Shown here piece after piece: positions 2,375 through 16,351 of a DNA stretch of 16,351 nt (its first letter is position 1; each line of letters starts with the position of its first letter). The stretch spans positions 1 through 16,351 of IMG/VR virus record IMGVR_UViG_3300042922_000430, one strand, 5' to 3'. The notes under the pieces were generated by a model. It worked only from the letters and a program-made list of their open reading frames with translations, ran no database searches and was not told the DNA's origin. The stretch is from a virus. Both the position numbers and the translations under genes were made by a program.

Positions 2375-4044
2375 TGGACGACCTGATCGAGATCGAGGGC
2401 GGCGAGGTACTCGCCAACCTCGACGACCGCACCATCACGGGACTGCTCGTCCCGTACAACGAGATCGGCCGCACGAACGTCGGCATGTTCGAGGTCACGG
2501 CCGGCGTGCTCGAGCTGCCGGCCGATCCGTCCCTGATGTCGCTCAACCTCGACCACGACCGCTACAGCCCGGTCGGGCGCGCGACCCGCGTGTGGGAGGA
2601 GCCGCGCGGCATCATGGCGACCTTCACGATCCCGAAGACCCCCGCCGGCGACGCCGCACTGGCAGACGCTCGCGACCCGAACGGTAAGCGCCGGCGGCTG
2701 TCGGGTGAGTTCCGGACGGGCATCAAGGCCGGCAAGGCGACCGGAGGCCCGCTCGCCGCCGGCGCGCTCGTCGAGCAGGGCGCGTTCGCGTCCGCGATGG
2801 TGCTCGCCGCCGACACCCCCGACCCCTACACCGCCCCTGAGGCCAGCAGCTCGAGCAAGTACATCACCGAGTACACCGACGACGAGGGCAACACCTGGCG
2901 TCGCGTCGAGGAGAACACCAGCACGACCACCGTGACCCAAGTCACGGGCGAACCCAACGAAGAACAGGAGGCCGACGTGGCCGATCAGAACACCACCGAT
3001 GTGCAGGCCACCGTCAGCCTCCCCGGCGACGGCCCCGCGATCACCGCCCCGCGCGTGAACAAGCAGGAGGTGCTCGCCGCGATCTCGTCGCTGCGCAAGA
3101 ACCCCTTTGACCAGGGCTCGCGCGAAGTGCTCGCCGCGCTGAGCGACATCAAGATCAGCGGCGCGGGCGCGCTCCCCGCCGCCGGCGTGATCCAGCAGAG
3201 CTGGCTCGGCCGAATCGATCTCGGCGAGACGTACGTCCGCGAGTACATCAACCTGTGCAAGCTCGGCACCGACATCAGCGCCGGCGGCAAGAAGGGCTTC
3301 AAGTTCCGCCGCGGCACGACCGGCAACCCCACCTGGGGCGACGGCACCTGGGCCGGCAACAAGACCGAGATCAACTCCGGGGTCGGTCACACGGTCACGT
3401 CCGAATCGACCCTCGAGCGGTACGCCCGCGGCGCCGACATCGGCCGGGAATTCTTCGATCTCCCCGGCGGCTCCGAGGTCGTCGAGGCGTTCCTCGCCGA
3501 GCTCGAGACGGACTACCTCATGTGGTCGGACGAGAAGGCTCGCGCCCTCATCGTGGCGACCGCCGGCGCTCCGATCGCCCCGTCGGTCTACCCCGGCGTC
3601 GACGGCCACGACTACGCCGGCGCGATGGGCCAGCTCATCCAGGGCATCCTCGCCGTGAAGCGCCGCAAGGCAGACGGTCGCCGCGACACCCCGACGTTCT
3701 CGATCGCGAACACGCTCGCGTTCGAGGAGCTGATCTACACGCCCAAGGATCTCGTTCCCGAGTTCGTGAACATCAGCGTCGGACTCGACGGCACGGCCAC
3801 CGTCGAGGGCCGCAACGGCCGCGTCACGGTCGTGCAGGGCGACACCGGCGTCGAGGACACCTCGAGCGTCATCGTCGGCGCGGACTACGCGATCGAGTTC
3901 GACGAGCTGCCCGGAGGCCCGCTCCACGTCAACGCACTCGAGATCGCGAAGGGTGGCGTCGACGAGGCCGTGCACGGCTACCTCCAGAAGTTCGTGCGCC
4001 GCCCCGAGGCGCTCGTGCACATCGGCACCCCCGACGCGCCCTGA
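2374..4044 (+). CDS. Prohead protease (HK97/S78-like) - linker/scaffold - major capsid protein fusion (556 aa)
   Basis: The N-terminal ~115 aa follow the S78/U35 prohead protease pattern (ITGLLVPYNEIG..., LNLDHDRYSPVGRA with His, GIMATFTIPKT, RRRLSGEF with Ser). Next comes an acidic/Thr-rich linker (...EPNEEQEADVADQNTTDVQ...). A ~350-aa capsid-sized C-terminal domain follows. No separate protease, scaffold or capsid gene exists elsewhere in the genome. Confidence 0.85.
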   Translation: MDDLIEIEGGEVLANLDDRTITGLLVPYNEIGRTNVGMFEVTAGVLELPADPSLMSLNLDHDRYSPVGRATRVWEEPRGIMATFTIPKTPAGDAALADARDPNGKRRRLSGEFRTGIKAGKATGGPLAAGALVEQGAFASAMVLAADTPDPYTAPEASSSSKYITEYTDDEGNTWRRVEENTSTTTVTQVTGEPNEEQEADVADQNTTDVQATVSLPGDGPAITAPRVNKQEVLAAISSLRKNPFDQGSREVLAALSDIKISGAGALPAAGVIQQSWLGRIDLGETYVREYINLCKLGTDISAGGKKGFKFRRGTTGNPTWGDGTWAGNKTEINSGVGHTVTSESTLERYARGADIGREFFDLPGGSEVVEAFLAELETDYLMWSDEKARALIVATAGAPIAPSVYPGVDGHDYAGAMGQLIQGILAVKRRKADGRRDTPTFSIANTLAFEELIYTPKDLVPEFVNISVGLDGTATVEGRNGRVTVVQGDTGVEDTSSVIVGADYAIEFDELPGGPLHVNALEIAKGGVDEAVHGYLQKFVRRPEALVHIGTPDAP

Positions 4045-4046
4045 CC

Positions 4047-4089
4047 CGGTACGGCCCGCGCTGCCGGCACACCAGCGCGGGCCGTATCG
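4047..4089 (+). terminator. Strong GC-rich hairpin immediately after the capsid gene (terminator/attenuator or RNA-stability element)
   Basis: Perfect 13-bp stem acggcccgcgctg (4051-4063) / cagcgcgggccgt (4073-4085) with a 9-nt loop. It is extendable to ~17 bp with one G.T pair. It lies in the 77-bp gap between the capsid stop (4044) and the next RBS (gcgaggag, 4107-4114). There is no U-tract. Confidence 0.5.
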
Positions 4090-4121
4090 CCCACCCCACC
4101 CACCAAGCGAGGAGCGTCCCC

Positions 4122-4469
4122 ATGGCCCTTGAATGGCTCACGCCTGACGAAGTGCTCGAGCGCTGGAGCGACGCCGAAAGCATCGACGACGACATGCTCC
4201 AGGAGATGCTCGACGCCGCCAAGGACGCGTGCGTGGCGTGGCTCCCGGAGGAGGACGACCCGGAGTGTCCCAGCGACTCGTCGATCCGTCTCGCACAGCT
4301 CACGCTCGTGCGCGGCATGTGGAACGACGCTCTCGCCGACGAGGCCGGATCGATTGGCGCGGAAGGGTTCGACTACAGCCCGCCGTGGCTCGCCCGCGAG
4401 GCGCGTCGCATGATGCGCCCGCAGCGGGGCGGCACGCCGGCGACCGGCCACGATCGCGAGGGCGACTGA
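4122..4469 (+). CDS. Head-tail connector/adaptor, gp6-like (115 aa)
   Basis: ATG 4122 is preceded by GAGGAG. The N-terminus (LTPDEVLERWSDAESIDDDMLQEMLDAAKDACVAWL) fits the gp6-like connector pattern. It is the first gene after the capsid gene. The long ORF 3255..4469 upstream of 4122 overlaps the capsid gene out of frame and is discounted. Confidence 0.75.
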   Translation: MALEWLTPDEVLERWSDAESIDDDMLQEMLDAAKDACVAWLPEEDDPECPSDSSIRLAQLTLVRGMWNDALADEAGSIGAEGFDYSPPWLAREARRMMRPQRGGTPATGHDREGD

Positions 4470-4852
4470 TGGCCGGCTACGCGGAGCTGCGCGCGCGCCT
4501 CGAGAACGAGCTACTCGCGGACATCGAGCCGGGACGGTTCCAGTGGGTGCCCGTGCAGCGAAAGCTCGACCGCCTCGCGAAGCCCACCCTCATGCTCAAG
4601 CTCGCCGGCGTCGCGCGCTCCACGGTCGCGCAGGGCGTGCTCGTGCCGACGTTCGTGCTCACCGTCGTGTCGGAGCATCAAGACCCGTCACAGGCCGACG
4701 TCTCCCTCGACGAACTGCTCGACGAGCTGCTCGCCCCGATCCAGGCGATCCGTTGGGTCGCATTCCGCGGAGCCGAGAAGGCCGCGTTCCAGTCCAAGTA
4801 CACGTGCTACGACATCCAGCTCGAGGCACTCACCGCCATCAAGAAGGGGTAA
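4469..4852 (+). CDS. Head-tail joining / tail-terminator-like neck protein (127 aa); function inferred from position only
   Basis: ATG 4469 overlaps the upstream stop (TGATG). High GC3. Size and position are typical of neck proteins. Confidence 0.6.
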   Translation: MAGYAELRARLENELLADIEPGRFQWVPVQRKLDRLAKPTLMLKLAGVARSTVAQGVLVPTFVLTVVSEHQDPSQADVSLDELLDELLAPIQAIRWVAFRGAEKAAFQSKYTCYDIQLEALTAIKKG

Positions 4853-5790: not shown

Positions 5791-7004
5791 TGCCAAAGGG
5801 CATTGATATCTCGGTCGCCGCCGACACGCGGGCGGCAATGTCGGGCATTCAGCGCGGCGTCATCGATCCGCTCACCGACGCCTCCGAGCTGCTCGAGAAG
5901 CTGGGCGACAAGAGCGACGACGCGACGCGGCAGCTCGAGGACGGGATGCGCGACGCACAGCGCCGAACGGACAGCGCGAAAGACGAGATCGCCGATCTCC
6001 GCGACGAGATCACCCGCGCCGGCCGCGCCGGCAAGTCCGCCGGCGACGACATCGACGACGGGTTCCGCAAAGCCGAGCAGGGCGCGGAGGAGTTCAAGGA
6101 CGAAGCCAACAGCACCGCCCGCGAGGCCGCGGCATCGTTCGACGGCTCGGCCGAATCGATCGCTGACATGTTCCAGGAGACGGCCGCGAACGCGTTTGTC
6201 GGGTTCGGTCCCGCCGGCGCTGTCGCCGGCCTCGCCGCCGCCGCCGGTATCGGTCTCGCCGTCAAGGGGTTCGAGGACATGGGCCTCGCGCAGGAGGCAT
6301 CCGAGGAGGCAGCGTCCGAGTGGGCGAACGCCTACATCGAGGCCGGCGGTCGCGTGCTCACGTCCGCAGTCACCACGGCGCGGGCGCTCGAGATCATCAC
6401 CGACACCGAGGGCCGGTTCAAGGAAGCGCAGGAGAACGCGAAGAACTGGGGCGTCGAGGTCGGGACCGCAGTCGCCGCGATGGCCGGCGAGACGTGGGCG
6501 CTGAACGCCGCGCAGCAGTCCCTCGCCGATCGATCGGCGGAGGCTGCCCGCCGGCTCGCCGAGCAGGAGACGCAAGTCGACAGCAGCGCCGGCGCAGCGT
6601 ACGACCTCGGAGACGCCGTCGAGGCCGGGCAGCGCTCCATGGAGAAGCTCACGGGCGAGATGGAGGCCGGCTCGCAGCGCGCCGACGCGTACTCGCAGTA
6701 CCTCGCCGAGATGGCGGCAAACACAGAGGGTGCAACGCGCGAGGTCGACGAATTCGGAGACGCCGTGTACAGCCTCCCGGACGGCTCGAAAGTCTACGTC
6801 GACGCGGAGACGGGTCAAGCGACGAGCGACATCGACGCCATCGAACGCAAGATTTACAGCACGGACGGGATGCAAGCGACGGTGCATGTGAACGCCCGAG
6901 TGAACCGCACAGCGGTCGACGATCTGATCTGGCAGCTCCGCAACAACACCTTCGACATGAAGGTGCGAACGCAGGGCTCTCGAGCGGGGGTGCCGTTCGC
7001 ATGA
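5790..7004 (+). CDS. Tape measure protein (404 aa, short)
   Basis: Long Ala/Glu/Asp-rich predicted coiled coil. It carries an internal Gly/Ala hydrophobic segment (FVGFGPAGAVAGLAAAAGIGLAV). It is the largest helical protein and sits directly upstream of the tail-tip genes. Confidence 0.8.
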   Translation: MPKGIDISVAADTRAAMSGIQRGVIDPLTDASELLEKLGDKSDDATRQLEDGMRDAQRRTDSAKDEIADLRDEITRAGRAGKSAGDDIDDGFRKAEQGAEEFKDEANSTAREAAASFDGSAESIADMFQETAANAFVGFGPAGAVAGLAAAAGIGLAVKGFEDMGLAQEASEEAASEWANAYIEAGGRVLTSAVTTARALEIITDTEGRFKEAQENAKNWGVEVGTAVAAMAGETWALNAAQQSLADRSAEAARRLAEQETQVDSSAGAAYDLGDAVEAGQRSMEKLTGEMEAGSQRADAYSQYLAEMAANTEGATREVDEFGDAVYSLPDGSKVYVDAETGQATSDIDAIERKIYSTDGMQATVHVNARVNRTAVDDLIWQLRNNTFDMKVRTQGSRAGVPFA

Positions 7005-11719: not shown

Positions 11720-12064
11720 ATGTCCAACAACAACAACGGCCCCGTGCTGTCCAAGAACCTCGCGTTCGCCGCGGTGGCACTGATCGTCCTGTTCGGCGTC
11801 ATCGGGGCCGTGCTGCTGTTCATCTTCCGGCCCGACGCGACCGCGACGTTCATTCAGATGATCGTCACGTTCGCCGGCATCCTCACCAGCGCGATCGTGC
11901 TGCTCTACGGTCTCGGCAAGGTGCAGGAGCGCATCGAGGTCGTGCAGAAGCAGACCAACGGCACCCTATCGGCGCTGCACGAGAAGCTCGCGGAGAAGGA
12001 CGCCGAGCTCGCTCGAGTGAATGAGGAGAAGGTGGCCCTCGCGCGCCAGGTGCCGACGACCTAG
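11720..12064 (+). CDS. Holin-like protein (114 aa; two TM helices plus charged coiled-coil tail)
   Basis: RBS agagagg. TM1 is LAFAAVALIVLFGVIGAVLLFIF and TM2 is FIQMIVTFAGILTSAIVLLYGLG. The C-terminus is Lys/Glu-rich. It lies immediately downstream of the endolysin. Only the last 114 codons of track ORF 10136..12064 are credible. Confidence 0.7.
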   Translation: MSNNNNGPVLSKNLAFAAVALIVLFGVIGAVLLFIFRPDATATFIQMIVTFAGILTSAIVLLYGLGKVQERIEVVQKQTNGTLSALHEKLAEKDAELARVNEEKVALARQVPTT

Positions 12065-12351
12065 CAGCCTGCCGCCTGAGCCGCGTCGAACGCCTCGACG
12101 ACCTCAGGCGTCGACTCAGCACCGGCACGCCATCCCGACGTGCCGGTGCTGTCGTCGCACAGACGCAGGGCCTCGTCGACGATCCCGTCAGCGATCTCGT
12201 CATACTGATCCGCGTTACCGAGTGCGCCCGTCTGCAACACGACGTCGACAGCCGCGCGCGCGGCCTCTCGAGGGTCAGCCGCCGGCGTACAGCCGGCGAG
12301 GACGAGAGCGGCCACGAGAAGCGCGCCGGCGGCGATGTGCTTGTTCCCCAT
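12061..12351 (-). CDS. Small secreted lipoprotein (96 aa precursor; lipobox LAGC)
   Basis: N-terminus MGNKHIAAGALLVAALVLAG|C is a positively charged n-region, a hydrophobic core and an L-A-G-C lipobox. The ATG lies 10 nt downstream of the int stop. Its stop and the holin stop share the palindrome CTAG (12061-12064). GC3 is somewhat lower than in the structural genes. Confidence 0.75.
   Translation of the reverse strand: MGNKHIAAGALLVAALVLAGCTPAADPREAARAAVDVVLQTGALGNADQYDEIADGIVDEALRLCDDSTGTSGWRAGAESTPEVVEAFDAAQAAGC
12073..12110. terminator. Bipartite hairpin at the convergence point of the plus-strand late operon and the minus-strand int-lipoprotein unit (possible bidirectional terminator)
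   Basis: Outer stem cgcctgag (12073-80) / ctcaggcg (12103-10). Inner stem cgtcga (12084-89) / tcgacg (12095-12100). It lies within the 3' end of the lipoprotein ORF. There is no U-tract. Confidence 0.3.
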
Positions 12352-12361
12352 GAGCGAGACT

Positions 12362-13216
12362 CTAGACCAGCGCGGAGCCGCCCCGAGATGCCGCCTCGAC
12401 GATCGACCGCTTGCGATCGTCGGGCAGCTTCACGTAGGTGCGCACCATCGCGAGCGACGCCCACCCCATCAGGTCCGCGACCACGTACGGGTCACCGCTC
12501 GAGGCGATCCAGAACCGCGTGGCGGCGCGATGCCGCAGCTTGTGGATCGTCCACGGGCCATCGAGCAGCCGGTTCACGCGGGTGCCGAGCCAACGAGCCG
12601 AGACGTGCCCGCCCTCGTCGCCGGGGAACAGGTGGCCGCGCCCCTGACGCTTCACCCGATCGAGGAGGGCGATCGCCATCGCACGAGTGAGCGGCACCTC
12701 GCGCGTCTTGTTGCCCTTGCCGTGCACGATCAGGTCGTGCCCGAGCAACGTCTCTACGATGTCGTCCGAGTGGATACACGCGATCTCCGCACGCCGTAGA
12801 CCGTGCTCGGCGGCGAGGTCGATCCATAGCCGCTCGTCGTCGTCGGCCTGCGCGAGCGCGGCGAGGTAGACCCGATCGGGCACCGGCCGCGGGTTCGGCT
12901 TACCCGGCTTGACTTTGTCGATCGGTTCGGTCGGATCGGCCGCCATGCGTGCCGTCTTGACCGCCCATCCGTAGAACGCCCTATACGTCGTCAGGCGCGA
13001 GCGGCGCGTCTCCTGCGCCCAATCGTGCTGGGCCATGAAGCCGGCGATGTCGTCGGTCGTGAGCTGCCACGGCCCGTAGGGGACACGGGAGGCGATGTGC
13101 TGGAGGTGCTGTCTTCGGGTGTAGGTGGACGTGCGAGCAACCCCGCTCGCGGTCTGTGCTGTGATGAACGCCGCGATCGACTCCGACCACGCCGCCCCGG
13201 GTAGGTGCGTGTGCAT
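12362..13216 (-). CDS. int: Tyrosine integrase (284 aa from ATG 13216; the ORF is open to a GTG at 13312)
   Basis: Catalytic signature in order: GLRRAEI (Arg), HGKGNKTREVPL (Lys), HKLRHRAATRF (His-x-x-Arg), LMGWASLAM (Trp/His position), VRTYV (Tyr). ATG 13216 has AGGA 7 nt upstream. The 32 codons upstream of it have GC3 of only ~60 percent, so they are probably non-coding. Confidence 0.9.
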   Translation of the reverse strand: MHTHLPGAAWSESIAAFITAQTASGVARTSTYTRRQHLQHIASRVPYGPWQLTTDDIAGFMAQHDWAQETRRSRLTTYRAFYGWAVKTARMAADPTEPIDKVKPGKPNPRPVPDRVYLAALAQADDDERLWIDLAAEHGLRRAEIACIHSDDIVETLLGHDLIVHGKGNKTREVPLTRAMAIALLDRVKRQGRGHLFPGDEGGHVSARWLGTRVNRLLDGPWTIHKLRHRAATRFWIASSGDPYVVADLMGWASLAMVRTYVKLPDDRKRSIVEAASRGGSALV

Positions 13217-13319
13217 GAACTGATCCTGTGGTGCTCGCGAGTCGCTCACGTTTCGCGGGTGAGTCGCGGGCATCGATCCCAGTAGCCGCACCGATGTGAA
13301 ACCAGTAGTCACCCAGGGC

Positions 13320-13661
13320 TCAGACGCTCAGAACGTCGCTTAGACTCGCCCAGGCAGTTAAGCGCTCGCCCGTCCAGAAGTTGGGGGCGACTACAGACCA
13401 GAAGGTTAGGGGTTCGAGTCCCTTCGGGCGCACCACACCAGGCAGGCCGTCGATCAACTGATCGGCGGCCTGTTTCGTTTCACGCGCCCACGCGATGAAC
13501 TGCGACACGGACGGCTCGGAAAGTCCGCGCTCCCAGTTCGAGATCGTCGTGCGTCCCACCCCGAGCGCTGCCGCCATCTGCGCCTGATCCAGCCCCGCCA
13601 GCACACGAGCATCGCGGAGGCGCGCGGCCACCGTCGTCGACTCGACATTCATCATGGTCAT
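13320..13661 (-). CDS. XRE/cI-type HTH repressor (113 aa from ATG 13661; the track ORF starts at a TTG at 13691); its 3' end reads antisense through a tRNA-derived attP core
   Basis: HTH: LAGLDQAQMAAALGVGRTTISNWERGLSEPS. Divergent from the early operon and adjacent to int. The C-terminal ...VVRPKGLEPLTFWSVV... is the antisense translation of a tRNA T-arm/acceptor. TAATCT (complement of 13669-13674) lies 7 nt upstream of ATG 13661, which suggests a leaderless transcript. Confidence 0.8.
   Translation of the reverse strand: MTMMNVESTTVAARLRDARVLAGLDQAQMAAALGVGRTTISNWERGLSEPSVSQFIAWARETKQAADQLIDGLPGVVRPKGLEPLTFWSVVAPNFWTGERLTAWASLSDVLSV
13391..13435 (+). other. tRNA 3'-half fragment = putative attP common core (anticodon-loop remnant to CCA end; Arg(ACG)-like by recollection)
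   Basis: Plus strand: CTACAGA (anticodon-loop remnant), CCAGA, AGGTT, then T-arm AGGGG-TTCGAGT-CCCTT. The acceptor 3' strand CGGGCGC (13425-31) follows, then discriminator A and CCA (13433-35). The 5' strands needed for the anticodon and D arms are absent, so this is a fragment and not a gene. It lies within ~100-180 bp of the int start (13216 or 13312). Confidence 0.65.
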
Positions 13662-13789
13662 GGGACTCAGATTAGCGCGCGGCGTGCTCAATAATCACGA
13701 CACGCCGTCCGAAATGCGGACGTGTGCAACGCCTGTGCAGAAACCTGTGGATCGTGCTCAAAAAAGTGAGCACGGACGAGGACTGAGAC
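13662..13789. promoter_or_regulatory. Divergent genetic-switch region between repressor and early operon
   Basis: 128-bp gap, which is non-coding if Rep starts at ATG 13661. It is dense in dyad symmetries: CGGCGTG (13680-86)/CACGCCG (13701-07); cgtccg (13706-11)/cggacg (13717-22); and a 22-bp palindrome at 13753-74. The motif CGTGCTCA occurs at 13683-90 and 13753-60, and inverted at 13767-74. A TAATCT -10 candidate serves rep. Confidence 0.55.
13753..13774. promoter_or_regulatory. Candidate operator: perfect 8-bp inverted repeat CGTGCTCA-aaaaag-TGAGCACG
   Basis: Seen directly in the sequence. It ends at 13774, at the 5' edge of the RBS (ggacgaggac, 13774-83) of the first early gene (ATG 13790). 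A third copy of the half-site sits next to the rep -10 candidate. Confidence 0.5.
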
Positions 13790-14395
13790 ATGGCTACCAA
13801 CCCGAACGGCGGTGTGCTCCACCGCGAGCGTATGCGCTTCGAGCGCGACTTCACGCAGCTGCCCAACCAGTGGCTCCGCGACCGGCGTCTAAGCCGAGCT
13901 GCGCGGGGCCTGCTCGCCGAACTGATGACCCACGAGGCCGGCTATGAACTGTCGATCGCGGGCCTGTCAGCAGTCGGCCTCGAGGGCCGCGACGCAATGC
14001 GGACGATGGTCACCGAACTCGAGACAGCCGGCTACCTGACGCGCCACCGAGAGCGCCGCGGAGGACGCCTCGGAGGGACCATCTGGAAGCTCCAGGATCC
14101 GTTCGATATCCCGGCACCTCAGCCGATGATTCCGGGCCTCGAGCGCACCGCCACCTACGCCGGGAAATCCAACGTAGGTTCGGCCAACGTAGGTTCGGCC
14201 TACGTTGGCTCCACCGCGTCGGGAAATCCGACGACTATAGAAGACCAAGTTAAGAAGAGAAATACTCACTACCCAGCGCAACCACAGAGGACCGCTGCGC
14301 GACCTGTGGATAACTCGCGCCGTGCGGCGTGCGGACACCAGCTCGTCGACGACCGTCACTGCGAGTTCGGATGCAAGCTCGAGGCGTCCGCATGA
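13790..14395 (+). CDS. Winged-helix DNA-binding protein, replication-initiator/replisome-organiser-like (201 aa)
   Basis: Good RBS. The N-terminal pattern FTQLPNQWLRDRRLSRAARGLLAELMTHEAGYELSIAGLS...MVTELETAGYLTRHRERRGGRLGGTIWKL is typical of wHTH phage/plasmid initiator N-domains. A central repeat/low-complexity linker is followed by a C-terminal Cys/His knot (CGHQLVDDRHCEFGC). It is the only replication-type gene present. Confidence 0.6.
   Translation: MATNPNGGVLHRERMRFERDFTQLPNQWLRDRRLSRAARGLLAELMTHEAGYELSIAGLSAVGLEGRDAMRTMVTELETAGYLTRHRERRGGRLGGTIWKLQDPFDIPAPQPMIPGLERTATYAGKSNVGSANVGSAYVGSTASGNPTTIEDQVKKRNTHYPAQPQRTAARPVDNSRRAACGHQLVDDRHCEFGCKLEASA
14161..14273 (+). repeat. Iteron-like repeat cluster plus AT-rich block inside the initiator-like gene (candidate origin of replication)
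   Basis: A 15-bp unit aacgtaggttcggcc occurs twice in tandem (14171-85, 14186-200) with a degenerate third copy (14201-15). An 11-bp perfect inverted repeat is present: gccaacgtagg (14183-93)/cctacgttggc (14199-209). The 10-bp direct repeat cgggaaatcc flanks the cluster (14161-70, 14220-29). Next comes actatagaagaccaagttaagaagagaaatactcact (14234-70), at ~32 percent GC in a genome that is otherwise strongly GC-rich. Confidence 0.45.
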
Positions 14396-15345: not shown

Positions 15346-16351
15346 GCGTAATCGAGGCCAAAGAGGCTCAATCTTTTGAGAATCCGATCGAACCTCCGCC
15401 TGTAGGCAGCGCCGGATTTTCTCACACGACCTGGGAAAAAGTGCGATCGAGCGGGATCGCACCGCGATGGTGCGGACCCCTCGACGACACGGAGGAATTG
15501 CGCCGAGAGTTCCTCGAGGGTGCTGCGCTGATGGGCTACGCGCTCGTCGATCTCGACGACCTCGAGGCGGTCGCCGCATTGCGCGCGCTCGAGCCGGCGT
15601 TCGAGCCGTTGCAGCCGCAGCAGCTCCTCATGGCCGACGCACTGAACGCCGGCCTCCAGGTCAACGCGATCGAGGTTCCCCGCCGCGCGAGCAAGACGAC
15701 CACGATCCTCTGCTGGGCTCTCGGCCGCTGTGTGTCGCGGAAGCGGTACAAGGTCACGTACTCCGCACAGGACGGCATGTCGGGCGTCGCCAACCTCGAC
15801 GAGTGGGCGCGCGACGGGCTCGACCGGATGAACCCCGCGGAGGACGACGGCGTGCCGCCGTGGCTCCGCAACGTCAAGCGCAAGCCCAAAGCACAGCAGC
15901 GCGCCGAGTCACTGTTCGGTGCCGACGTCGTGCCGTTCGAGGAGCCCGAGAAGTCCGGCCGCGGTTTCATCATCTACCGATCGGTCACGAAGGCCGGCGT
16001 GTACTTCGACAATGGCTCCGCGTTCTACGTCGTGCGACCCGACGCGAAAGCGTTCCGCGGGAAGGCCGCAGACGTGTCGTGGATCGACGAGTCGCAGGAA
16101 GTCGAGCCCACCGAAGGCGCGGCGCTGCTCGCCGGCATCCTGCCGCTCCAGGACACCCGACCCGAGGGCATGACGATCGTCTCCGGAACGGCCGGCGAAG
16201 TTCGCGCCGGCCCGCTCTGGATGTTCCTCGAGCGGCTCCGCGCCGGCGACCCCGAGATGGGCGGCGTCGACTTCGCGGTGGCGGACGACACCCCGTGGGG
16301 ACTCGTCGAGAACGAGGACACGGCGATCGAGCTGCTCAAGAGCGTGCACCC
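15342..16351 (+). CDS. terL: Terminase large subunit, 5' portion (ATPase domain); open to the window end and continues at base 1 (16225-16351 duplicates 1-127)
   Basis: The open frame (positions congruent to 0 mod 3) has no stop from 15342 to 16351. It is absent from the ORF track because it has no stop in the window. Motifs: Walker A-like EVPRRASKTT (15678-15701), Walker B-like VSWIDESQE (16074-16100), coupling motif VSGTAG. The joined product is 571 aa from GTG 15342, or 508 aa from ATG 15531 (GAGGG 10 nt upstream). The first ~35 codons after 15342 have GC3 near 50 percent, so the later start is plausible. Confidence 0.85.
   Translation, partial: MSVIEAKEAQSFENPIEPPPVGSAGFSHTTWEKVRSSGIAPRWCGPLDDTEELRREFLEGAALMGYALVDLDDLEAVAALRALEPAFEPLQPQQLLMADALNAGLQVNAIEVPRRASKTTTILCWALGRCVSRKRYKVTYSAQDGMSGVANLDEWARDGLDRMNPAEDDGVPPWLRNVKRKPKAQQRAESLFGADVVPFEEPEKSGRGFIIYRSVTKAGVYFDNGSAFYVVRPDAKAFRGKAADVSWIDESQEVEPTEGAALLAGILPLQDTRPEGMTIVSGTAGEVRAGPLWMFLERLRAGDPEMGGVDFAVADDTPWGLVENEDTAIELLKSVH
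16225..16351 (+). repeat. Terminal overlap, copy B (identical to 1..127)
   Basis: See copy A. Identity was checked base by base. Confidence 0.95.

Follow-up and report, generated by a model that had tools for sequence, protein, structure and literature searches.

The window analysed here is the whole 16,351-nucleotide (nt) stretch of IMG/VR virus record IMGVR_UViG_3300042922_000430. A minus-strand block of this sequence carries a lipoprotein gene, a tyrosine integrase gene (int) and the gene for an Xre-type helix-turn-helix (HTH) repressor (rep), the end of which overlaps, in antisense, sequence resembling the 3' half of a tRNA gene. A first-pass annotation had interpreted the tRNA-like stretch as the core of a phage attachment site (attP) and had proposed that integration at this core exchanges the C-terminus of the repressor, as in the systems known for integration-dependent immunity. 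The features at the locus are:

13320..13661, minus strand: rep in its viral form, stop codon included; a 113-amino acid (aa) Xre-type HTH repressor, read antisense through the attP core.
13401..13661, minus strand: rep codons 1-87, the predicted prophage repressor, ending ...VVRPKGLEPLTF; homologues stop at the same point.
13398..13400, minus strand: switch codon Trp-88 (TGG), which T39 of the host tRNA gene, just outside the common core, would turn into TGA at the attL junction (read from the window against the host tRNA).
13323..13397, minus strand: viral-only extension, codons 89-113 (SVVAPNFWTGERLTAWASLSDVLSV, opened by Trp-88), predicted to be lost from Rep on integration and to remain beside int at the attR junction.
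13399..13433, plus strand: strict common core of attP, a 35-nt exact match to positions 40-74 of Microbacterium tRNA-Arg(ACG).
13389..13435, plus strand: extended similarity to the 3' half of tRNA-Arg, with 43/45 matches over 13389-13433, ending A-CCA.
12362..13216, minus strand: int, a 284-aa tyrosine integrase of XerC/D size ending ...GGSALV (Pfam Phage_integrase, E = 3e-18; phrog_1 integrase).

The limits of the core were set by aligning the window with attL and attR of a prophage in Microbacterium sp. NPDC077663 (see below), with attR of Microbacterium sp. RG1 and with others; the reference tRNA-Arg(ACG) is the gene called by ARAGORN at positions 10277-10350 of contig L002, from NPDC077663. 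The parts of the tRNA 3' half listed in the first-pass annotation are all present on the plus strand, with T-arm AGGGG-TTCGAGT-CCCTT, acceptor strand CGGGCGC and A-CCA at 13409-13435. The alignment narrows this half to a strict core comprising the 3' strand of the anticodon stem, the variable loop, the T-arm, the 3' strand of the acceptor stem and the discriminator. Since these 35 nt are identical to part of a real tRNA-Arg(ACG) gene, the resemblance is not a matter of chance. Two substitutions in the extended half are phage-specific: A at 13395, where the host has G36, and C at 13398, where the host has T39. Every phage and attR copy carries ACAGACC (...GACTACAGACCAGAAGG...) and the host and attL copies carry ACGGATC (...GACTACGGATCAGAAGG...).

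As had been claimed from the sequence alone, rep reads straight through the core and 22 codons beyond it, which translation confirmed. The minus-strand open reading frame (ORF) occupies 13320-13691 and gives 113 aa when counted from the ATG at 13661; it crosses the core as ...VVRPKGLEPLTFWSVV, and its stop codon occupies 13320-13322, which leaves 103 nt to the int ATG at 13216. Rep homologues begin alike, with MT(M/T/I)(M/L/I).... The protein matches Pfam HTH_3 (E = 9e-13) and, over residues 7-92, phrog_2328 "transcriptional repressor". The window has C where the host has T39. In the antisense reading, this is the last base of the codon that follows Phe-87; therefore, TGG is expected to become TGA on integration, and Rep is predicted to shorten from 113 to 87 aa. 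In an AlphaFold2 model, used for domain boundaries only, the HTH domain (residues 8-72) is confidently folded and residues 73-113 have pLDDT values below 50. According to this model, the 87-aa form would keep the whole HTH domain, and the 26-residue tail that it loses would be unstructured.

The 11 Rep homologues found fall into two groups, and each is split into short and long forms. In the group that carries the tRNA-Arg peptide, P0004, P0007 (both 87 aa), P0008 and P0009 stop exactly at LTF*, the position at which a new stop codon had been anticipated at attL; the window Rep, P0006 and P0010 run on past LTF. The sister group carries another antisense-tRNA peptide (...TPWDLNPEPTD). Its short member P0003 (L137, 3001-3355; 65% identical in the HTH domain) overlaps a tRNA-Lys(CTT) gene, the anticodon loop of which supplies the stop codon in antisense, and has phage genes on one flank and host genes on the other. 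In these sequences, the repressor domain and the attP core seem to have been swapped as separate units.

The homologue P0009 is encoded on a 670-kb contig of Microbacterium sp. NPDC077663 in which both prophage ends can be seen. At attL, the truncated rep (103 aa, P0009, ending ...VRPKGLEPLTF*) lies antisense over an intact tRNA-Arg gene, at the border between phage and host genes. At attR, about 15 kb away on the same contig, an int gene whose product is 77% identical to that of the window lies beside a phage-type partial tRNA, beyond which host DNA begins. An integrase identical to that of the NPDC077663 prophage is also encoded on a free contig of about 15.7 kb, the sequence of which starts inside the core. 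An attR of the same kind is found in Microbacterium sp. RG1 (CP034121.1; Int 82% identical) and in strain 2P06AB (NZ_CP154843.1; 80%), and integrases 77-83% identical to the window Int are found in Microbacterium prophages. The attR copies of L006, L008 and L049 retain a stretch homologous to the viral-only extension of rep. In the integrated relatives, then, the tRNA is rebuilt at attL, rep is cut at ...LTF*, and int and the lipoprotein gene lie at attR, where int is detached from the rep promoter. The first-pass annotation had foreseen the host tRNA, the flanking cores and the transfer of int and the lipoprotein gene to the opposite prophage end, the last of which is seen in NPDC077663. The exact phage-type core pattern had 2 matches in about 185,000 species-representative genomes.

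The window begins and ends with an exact direct repeat of 127 bp (1-127 and 16225-16351), from which a circular assembly of 16,224 bp follows; the large terminase ORF crosses the circle junction (from about 15343 to 833). Its small siphophage gene set is complete, with terminase, portal, a 556-aa major head protein and tail genes. We regard the window as a temperate siphophage of 16.2 kb in its viral (attP), circular form, with Microbacterium or related Microbacteriaceae as hosts and with an integration-dependent immunity cassette, and place the probability of this joint reading at roughly 0.78. Integration-dependent immunity was reportedly described by Broussard et al. in 2013 for mycobacteriophages BPs (Cluster G), Brujita (I1) and Charlie (N). 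Its definition is given in PMC3694055 and PMC9262239, and the biochemistry of the BPs repressor in PMC4557955.

The region between rep and the first rightward gene contains candidate sites through which such a cassette could be controlled:

13662..13789, no strand assigned: 128-nt divergent region between rep and the first rightward gene, with candidate operators and a candidate leaderless rep promoter (P_rep); presumed control region.
13683-13690: candidate operator half-site CGTGCTCA, from repeat analysis, near P_rep.
13753-13774: candidate operator palindrome CGTGCTCA-N6-TGAGCACG, 16 nt upstream of the first early gene.
13669-13674, minus strand: candidate -10 element of the leaderless P_rep, TAATCT, from conservation of TANNNT before the rep ATG.
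13790..14395, plus strand: first rightward gene, encoding a 201-aa winged-HTH protein that resembles replication initiators (phrog_1456, E = 1e-16; phrog_270 "replication initiation protein", E = 7e-9).

The half-site motif is present in five copies in the window against 0.98 expected, and three of the five fall within the 128-nt control region. The start of rep was compared across eight lineages, and the sites of interest are window 13662-13674 (minus strand) and the homologous positions in L001, L002, L005, L009 and L010. In five lineages (the window and four others), the hexamer TANNNT stands 6-7 nt ahead of the rep start codon and a Shine-Dalgarno sequence is missing; a sixth, L005, has CATCAT at the same spacing. 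This pattern points to a leaderless rep mRNA. A scan of 13200-13850 for sigma-70 consensus promoters and terminators gave no match; therefore, the promoter proposal rests on the conserved TANNNT.

The switch might then work as follows. The rep-int mRNA would have no leader and would start at the rep ATG. If the analogy with BPs, Brujita and Charlie holds, the viral, long form of Rep would be unstable or inactive through its C-terminal tail, and Int would likewise be turned over, via its uncharged tail. Should Int act before its own degradation, recombination within 13399-13433 would place host T39 beside the core and yield the 87-aa Rep. Only this short prophage form would accumulate and repress the rightward early promoter, its probable operator being the palindrome at 13753-13774, with the third half-site near P_rep. 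Integration itself would thus be the lysis-lysogeny decision. At attR, int would be without P_rep, which should stabilise lysogeny; excision would require no Xis and would hinge solely on whatever Int is still expressed from attR. No Cro-like or Xis-like family is represented among the five right-arm ORFs (PHROGs; the product of 13790-14395 was scanned against Pfam as well). With its XerC/D size and no Xis-like family detected, the integrase fits the published systems, which use core-type sites only and no recombination directionality factor (RDF) (PMC9262239). Three small right-arm ORFs (102, 62 and 60 aa) are without any family match, so a novel RDF is possible.

Several observations weigh against this interpretation. 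Genome, protein and metagenome searches turned up no prophage of this exact phage, and integration with truncation is established for its relatives only. The metagenome scan with Int recovered a single close relative (L049, on a 1.5-kb contig), and the window itself was not recovered by the same scan. The window's own Rep is likewise absent from the protein collection, where its closest homologue is 65-75% identical. Furthermore, Rep ends ...DVLSV and Int ...GGSALV, neither of them a canonical -LAA tag, and the tails of some viral Rep relatives finish with charged or polar residues (...VTES, ...ADAR, ...SMNK).

The wider family lends itself to a comparison of such tails. Integrase relatives 35-47% identical to the window Int are encoded on contigs of about 15-17 kb that use other tRNAs. 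Upstream of int, at a distance of 100-250 nt, these contigs keep a tRNA 3' half in antisense, and most of them have an HTH ORF that runs across it and ends ...ELIAAA, ...ILAA, ...KFAA or ...RAA. Among viral-form Rep tails of this family, 14 of 26 end in A and 10 of 26 in AA. The closest Int homologues end PSLV, PSLL, PTLI or PALA, and the last five residues of 113 Int homologues are 12.7% charged as against a background of 28.8%, figures drawn from related sequences, so that p-values attached to them overstate the support. Family-wide, the tails lean toward the degron idea, and we infer that ...LSV in Rep and ...ALV in Int may be degradation tags.

The non-canonical tails of the window would also fit an overlap that is real but has no regulatory role. 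The attP would then simply overlap a dispensable rep 3' end in a 16-kb genome, both Rep forms would be stable and active, and the choice between lysis and lysogeny would be made elsewhere. The polar or charged ends of several viral Rep relatives fit this alternative as well, as does the extension itself: disorder is predicted for it, its protein sequence is little conserved, and part of such conservation as it has is apparently at the DNA level. We consider this explanation unlikely. The overlap turns up again at several tRNAs, among them those for Arg and Lys, and in remote integrase lineages, with clear -AA, -LAA or -AAA tails in many of these cases; the host-supplied stop codon just outside the core is conserved; and in BPs the architecture has been found by experiment to be regulatory.

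The DNA of the extension contains a further element:

13362..13388, plus strand: GCGCTCGCCCG and, after it, the CCAGAAG(G)TT(A)GGGG of the core in a second copy; the repeat falls within the Rep extension, 24 nt upstream of the core.

A second CCAGAAG copy is present in six of nine phage lineages (the window, L005, L008, L129, L131 and L132), at 24 nt upstream of the core or, in two lineages, at 33 nt. The 11-nt CGGGCGAGCGC is common to the window and L005 and lies in different Rep reading frames, which suggests conservation at the DNA level. The 13362-13388 element may serve Int as an accessory site, or it may be what is left of the 5' half of the tRNA. A bolder form of the immunity reading can be built on it: a minimal two-gene (rep-int) switch without cro and xis, in which 13362-13388, kept only in attP and attR, would offer the integrase accessory sites from which recombination takes its direction in the absence of an RDF, and the ...LSV and ...ALV tails would be read by a non-ssrA protease or adaptor. 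We hold this elaborate version to be quite improbable.

The same element enters into a second alternative, in which activation depends on integration and proteolysis plays no part. Either the 26-residue extension would block oligomerisation or operator binding, or its DNA (the second CCAGAAG copy and GCGCTCGCCCG) would serve mainly as an accessory integrase arm biasing the direction of recombination. The repeated core half-site, the 11-nt motif shared in different frames and the non-canonical tails are all compatible with such a scheme. It is nonetheless very unlikely in our judgement: the two Rep forms of BPs bind DNA similarly and inactivation is by degradation (PMC4557955), published systems are reported to need core-type sites only, and the repeat is missing from three of nine lineages.

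Finally, the idea that the tRNA-like stretch is a functional phage tRNA, a tRNA-like RNA or a chance resemblance, with no attachment site at all, has next to no chance of being right: the Rfam tRNA model RF00005 does align with the full 13362-13432, pairable acceptor stem included, yet at 19.2 bits (E = 0.29) it stays below its gathering score of 29, ARAGORN finds no tRNA, the 74-nt stretch folds no better than shuffled sequences (z = -0.53), the anticodon position reads ACA, and the attL and attR junctions of the relatives break exactly at the tRNA-like sequence. On the ARAGORN, Rfam and folding results, the stretch is not a tRNA gene, and the idea of a structured tRNA-like RNA at 13362-13435 was rejected.

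Returning to the preferred reading, an integration-dependent immunity cassette, BPs is among the closest parallels. In both phages, the attP core corresponds to the 3' end of a tRNA gene (tRNA-Arg in BPs) and lies inside rep; a host base beside the core alters, or in the window is predicted to alter, the last position of a codon so that a stop results; the prophage Rep is the shorter one (136 to 103 aa in BPs, 113 to 87 aa predicted for the window); and a tyrosine integrase is found with no recognisable Xis. The codon converted to a stop is a Cys codon in BPs (PMC9262239), whereas in the window it is Trp. No sequence relationship between the two was detected, and BPs is not among the core matches. 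The window also differs in having no cro-like gene, as the first-pass annotation had remarked: its first rightward gene occupies the slot that cro has in BPs and resembles a replication initiator. The role of Cro in integration-dependent immunity has been described as unknown (PMC3694055). The ...LSV and ...ALV tails, again, differ from the -LAA-like tails of the BPs group. Compared with BPs, Brujita and Charlie, the window represents a phage of Microbacteriaceae rather than of mycobacteria, and has 16 kb in place of 40-50 kb.

Closer in size are the Gordonia phages of about 16-17 kb, which include Cluster CW (GMA5, GRU3, Jeanie, McGonagall), SallySpecial of Cluster DM, Coeur and Rahul. Like the window, they have terminase, portal, capsid, tail and lysis genes in this order rightwards, int and rep leftwards, and a short early arm with an HNH gene; their portal, capsid, Int and Rep proteins are 33-38% identical to those of the window. 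Integration-dependent immunity has been reported for the Cluster CW phages (PMC5559632). In Coeur, gene 20, annotated "immunity repressor", holds a tRNA-Arg-like core and its product ends ...VVAA; the tRNA-Arg core is found inside the immunity repressor genes of SallySpecial and Rahul as well, and in that of another Gordonia phage, UmaThurman. The differences lie in the host genus, in the use of tRNA-Lys by Cluster CW, in the MerR-like HTH gene beside rep in Coeur and in the lack of any nucleotide-level similarity outside the core. In view of these phages, the "very stripped-down" switch of the first-pass annotation stands as regards the missing cro but not as something new, since such systems are already on record, by report or by annotation, for Gordonia phages of similar size (PMC5559632; phage Coeur).

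A parallel within the same host family is Curtobacterium phage Barebow (18.3 kb, PQ868957), which also infects a member of the Microbacteriaceae. Its Int is 49% identical to that of the window, its Rep 43%, and its gp21 is 43% identical to the product of 13790-14395. A tRNA-Arg-type core lies inside its gene 19, the HTH protein gene beside int, and here, as in BPs, a Cys codon is the switch. The annotation of gene 19 goes no further than "helix-turn-helix DNA-binding protein". In Barebow, though not in the window, rep and the gp21 homologue are separated by a small HTH gene (gene 20); no gene of the type of Barebow gene 20 or Coeur gene 21 is present in the window. The structural genes of Barebow show no similarity to those of the window at E below 1e-5.

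The core itself recurs more widely. A megablast search of the whole window against 50,697 phage records gave a single match, the core in Mycobacterium phage Cracklewink (36/36 nt identical over 13399-13434), where it lies within the immunity repressor gene; therefore, the window has no close cultured relative. The same tRNA-Arg core is shared by the Bipper/Cracklewink/Typha group, in which, as in prophages of M. abscessus (prophiGD43A-5), it lies inside the annotated immunity repressor gene beside a tyrosine integrase gene. These genomes differ from the window in their size of about 76 kb and are otherwise unrelated to it, and Cracklewink has an annotated excise gene beside rep. Prophages of M. 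abscessus are among the published cases of integration-dependent immunity; in them, int lies directly downstream of rep or three to five genes away, as in L005 (PMC8092301). A Streptomyces phage is also reported to have integration-dependent immunity.

The window is thus a further example of a known switch, the mechanism and architecture of which are already well described. No report linking integration-dependent immunity to Microbacterium or the Microbacteriaceae was found in the searchable literature, and the small phages isolated on Microbacterium hosts are lytic according to a survey. The present case would extend this form of immunity to the Microbacteriaceae. Public genomes and metagenomes hold natural before-and-after pairs, the viral and prophage forms of one repressor family, at two tRNAs, and these pairs give independent comparative support to the model. 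With rep and int in 16.2 kb and no recognisable cro or xis, the switch would be among the smallest self-contained temperate ones. Its compactness would suit it to testing whether switches of this type resemble an ancestral state. For Microbacterium, the tRNA-Arg site could underlie an integrating vector or a repressor marker.

The window is a JGI metagenome contig with a G+C content of 68%. The window int is a 100% match to JGI gene call P0012. Both rep and int are on the minus strand, with int downstream, and the gene on the far side of int is:

12061..12351, minus strand: lipoprotein gene, 3' of int, with a signal peptide and LAGC lipobox in its translation.

An ORF at 11883-12464 was also considered as the downstream lipoprotein gene and was ruled out as an Arg-rich, wrong-frame artefact, the true gene being that at 12061-12351. 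In L006 and L008, an analogous lipoprotein or membrane-protein gene likewise comes after int. The rightward arm consists of five genes, opening with the 201-aa winged-HTH gene and including an HNH endonuclease gene.

Other observations concern the control region and the core. The two CGTGCTCA copies outside the control region lie within structural genes, at 4654-4661 and 6353-6360, and could be chance occurrences given the 0.98 expected window-wide; in BPs, Rep binds dispersed sites across the genome. At 13433-13435 the phage encodes CCA after the discriminator (GCGCA-CCA), where the host gene goes on GCGCA-CAC; where the crossover falls would decide whether the attL tRNA, once rebuilt, gains a 3' trailer derived from the phage. 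GCGCTCGCCCG could pair with the acceptor 3' strand.

The interval between core and int varies among relatives. An additional ORF is present there in NPDC077663 (92 aa; L006, 9641-9919) and in RG1 (86 aa; L008, 9567-9827), and L005 has seven small ORFs (2519-4439); the window has none. These extra ORFs resemble the GMA5 and M. abscessus variants in the literature. In L129, L131, L132 and L133, a conserved hairpin, TGTCAGG-GGAAA-CCTGACA, lies between the rep stop codon and int and overlaps the last part of the extension of viral Rep (peptide ...CQVSPD...); the window lacks it.

Among the more distant relatives, L014-L029 are IMG/VR contigs of about 15-17 kb, several of them human-associated, with Int proteins 35-38% identical to that of the window and the same arrangement of int and attP-in-rep at other tRNAs. 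The viral Rep proteins of this group have tails of the textbook ssrA type (...ELIAAA, ...ILAA), and L022 has two antisense tRNA cores. In L003 (1-10416), the truncated rep gene for P0008 abuts tRNA-Arg at the contig end, and the 10 kb behind it contain MFS, TetR, MerR, acetyltransferase and lactamase-type genes and no phage genes; this contig may represent another integrative element, or a decayed prophage, with the same cassette.

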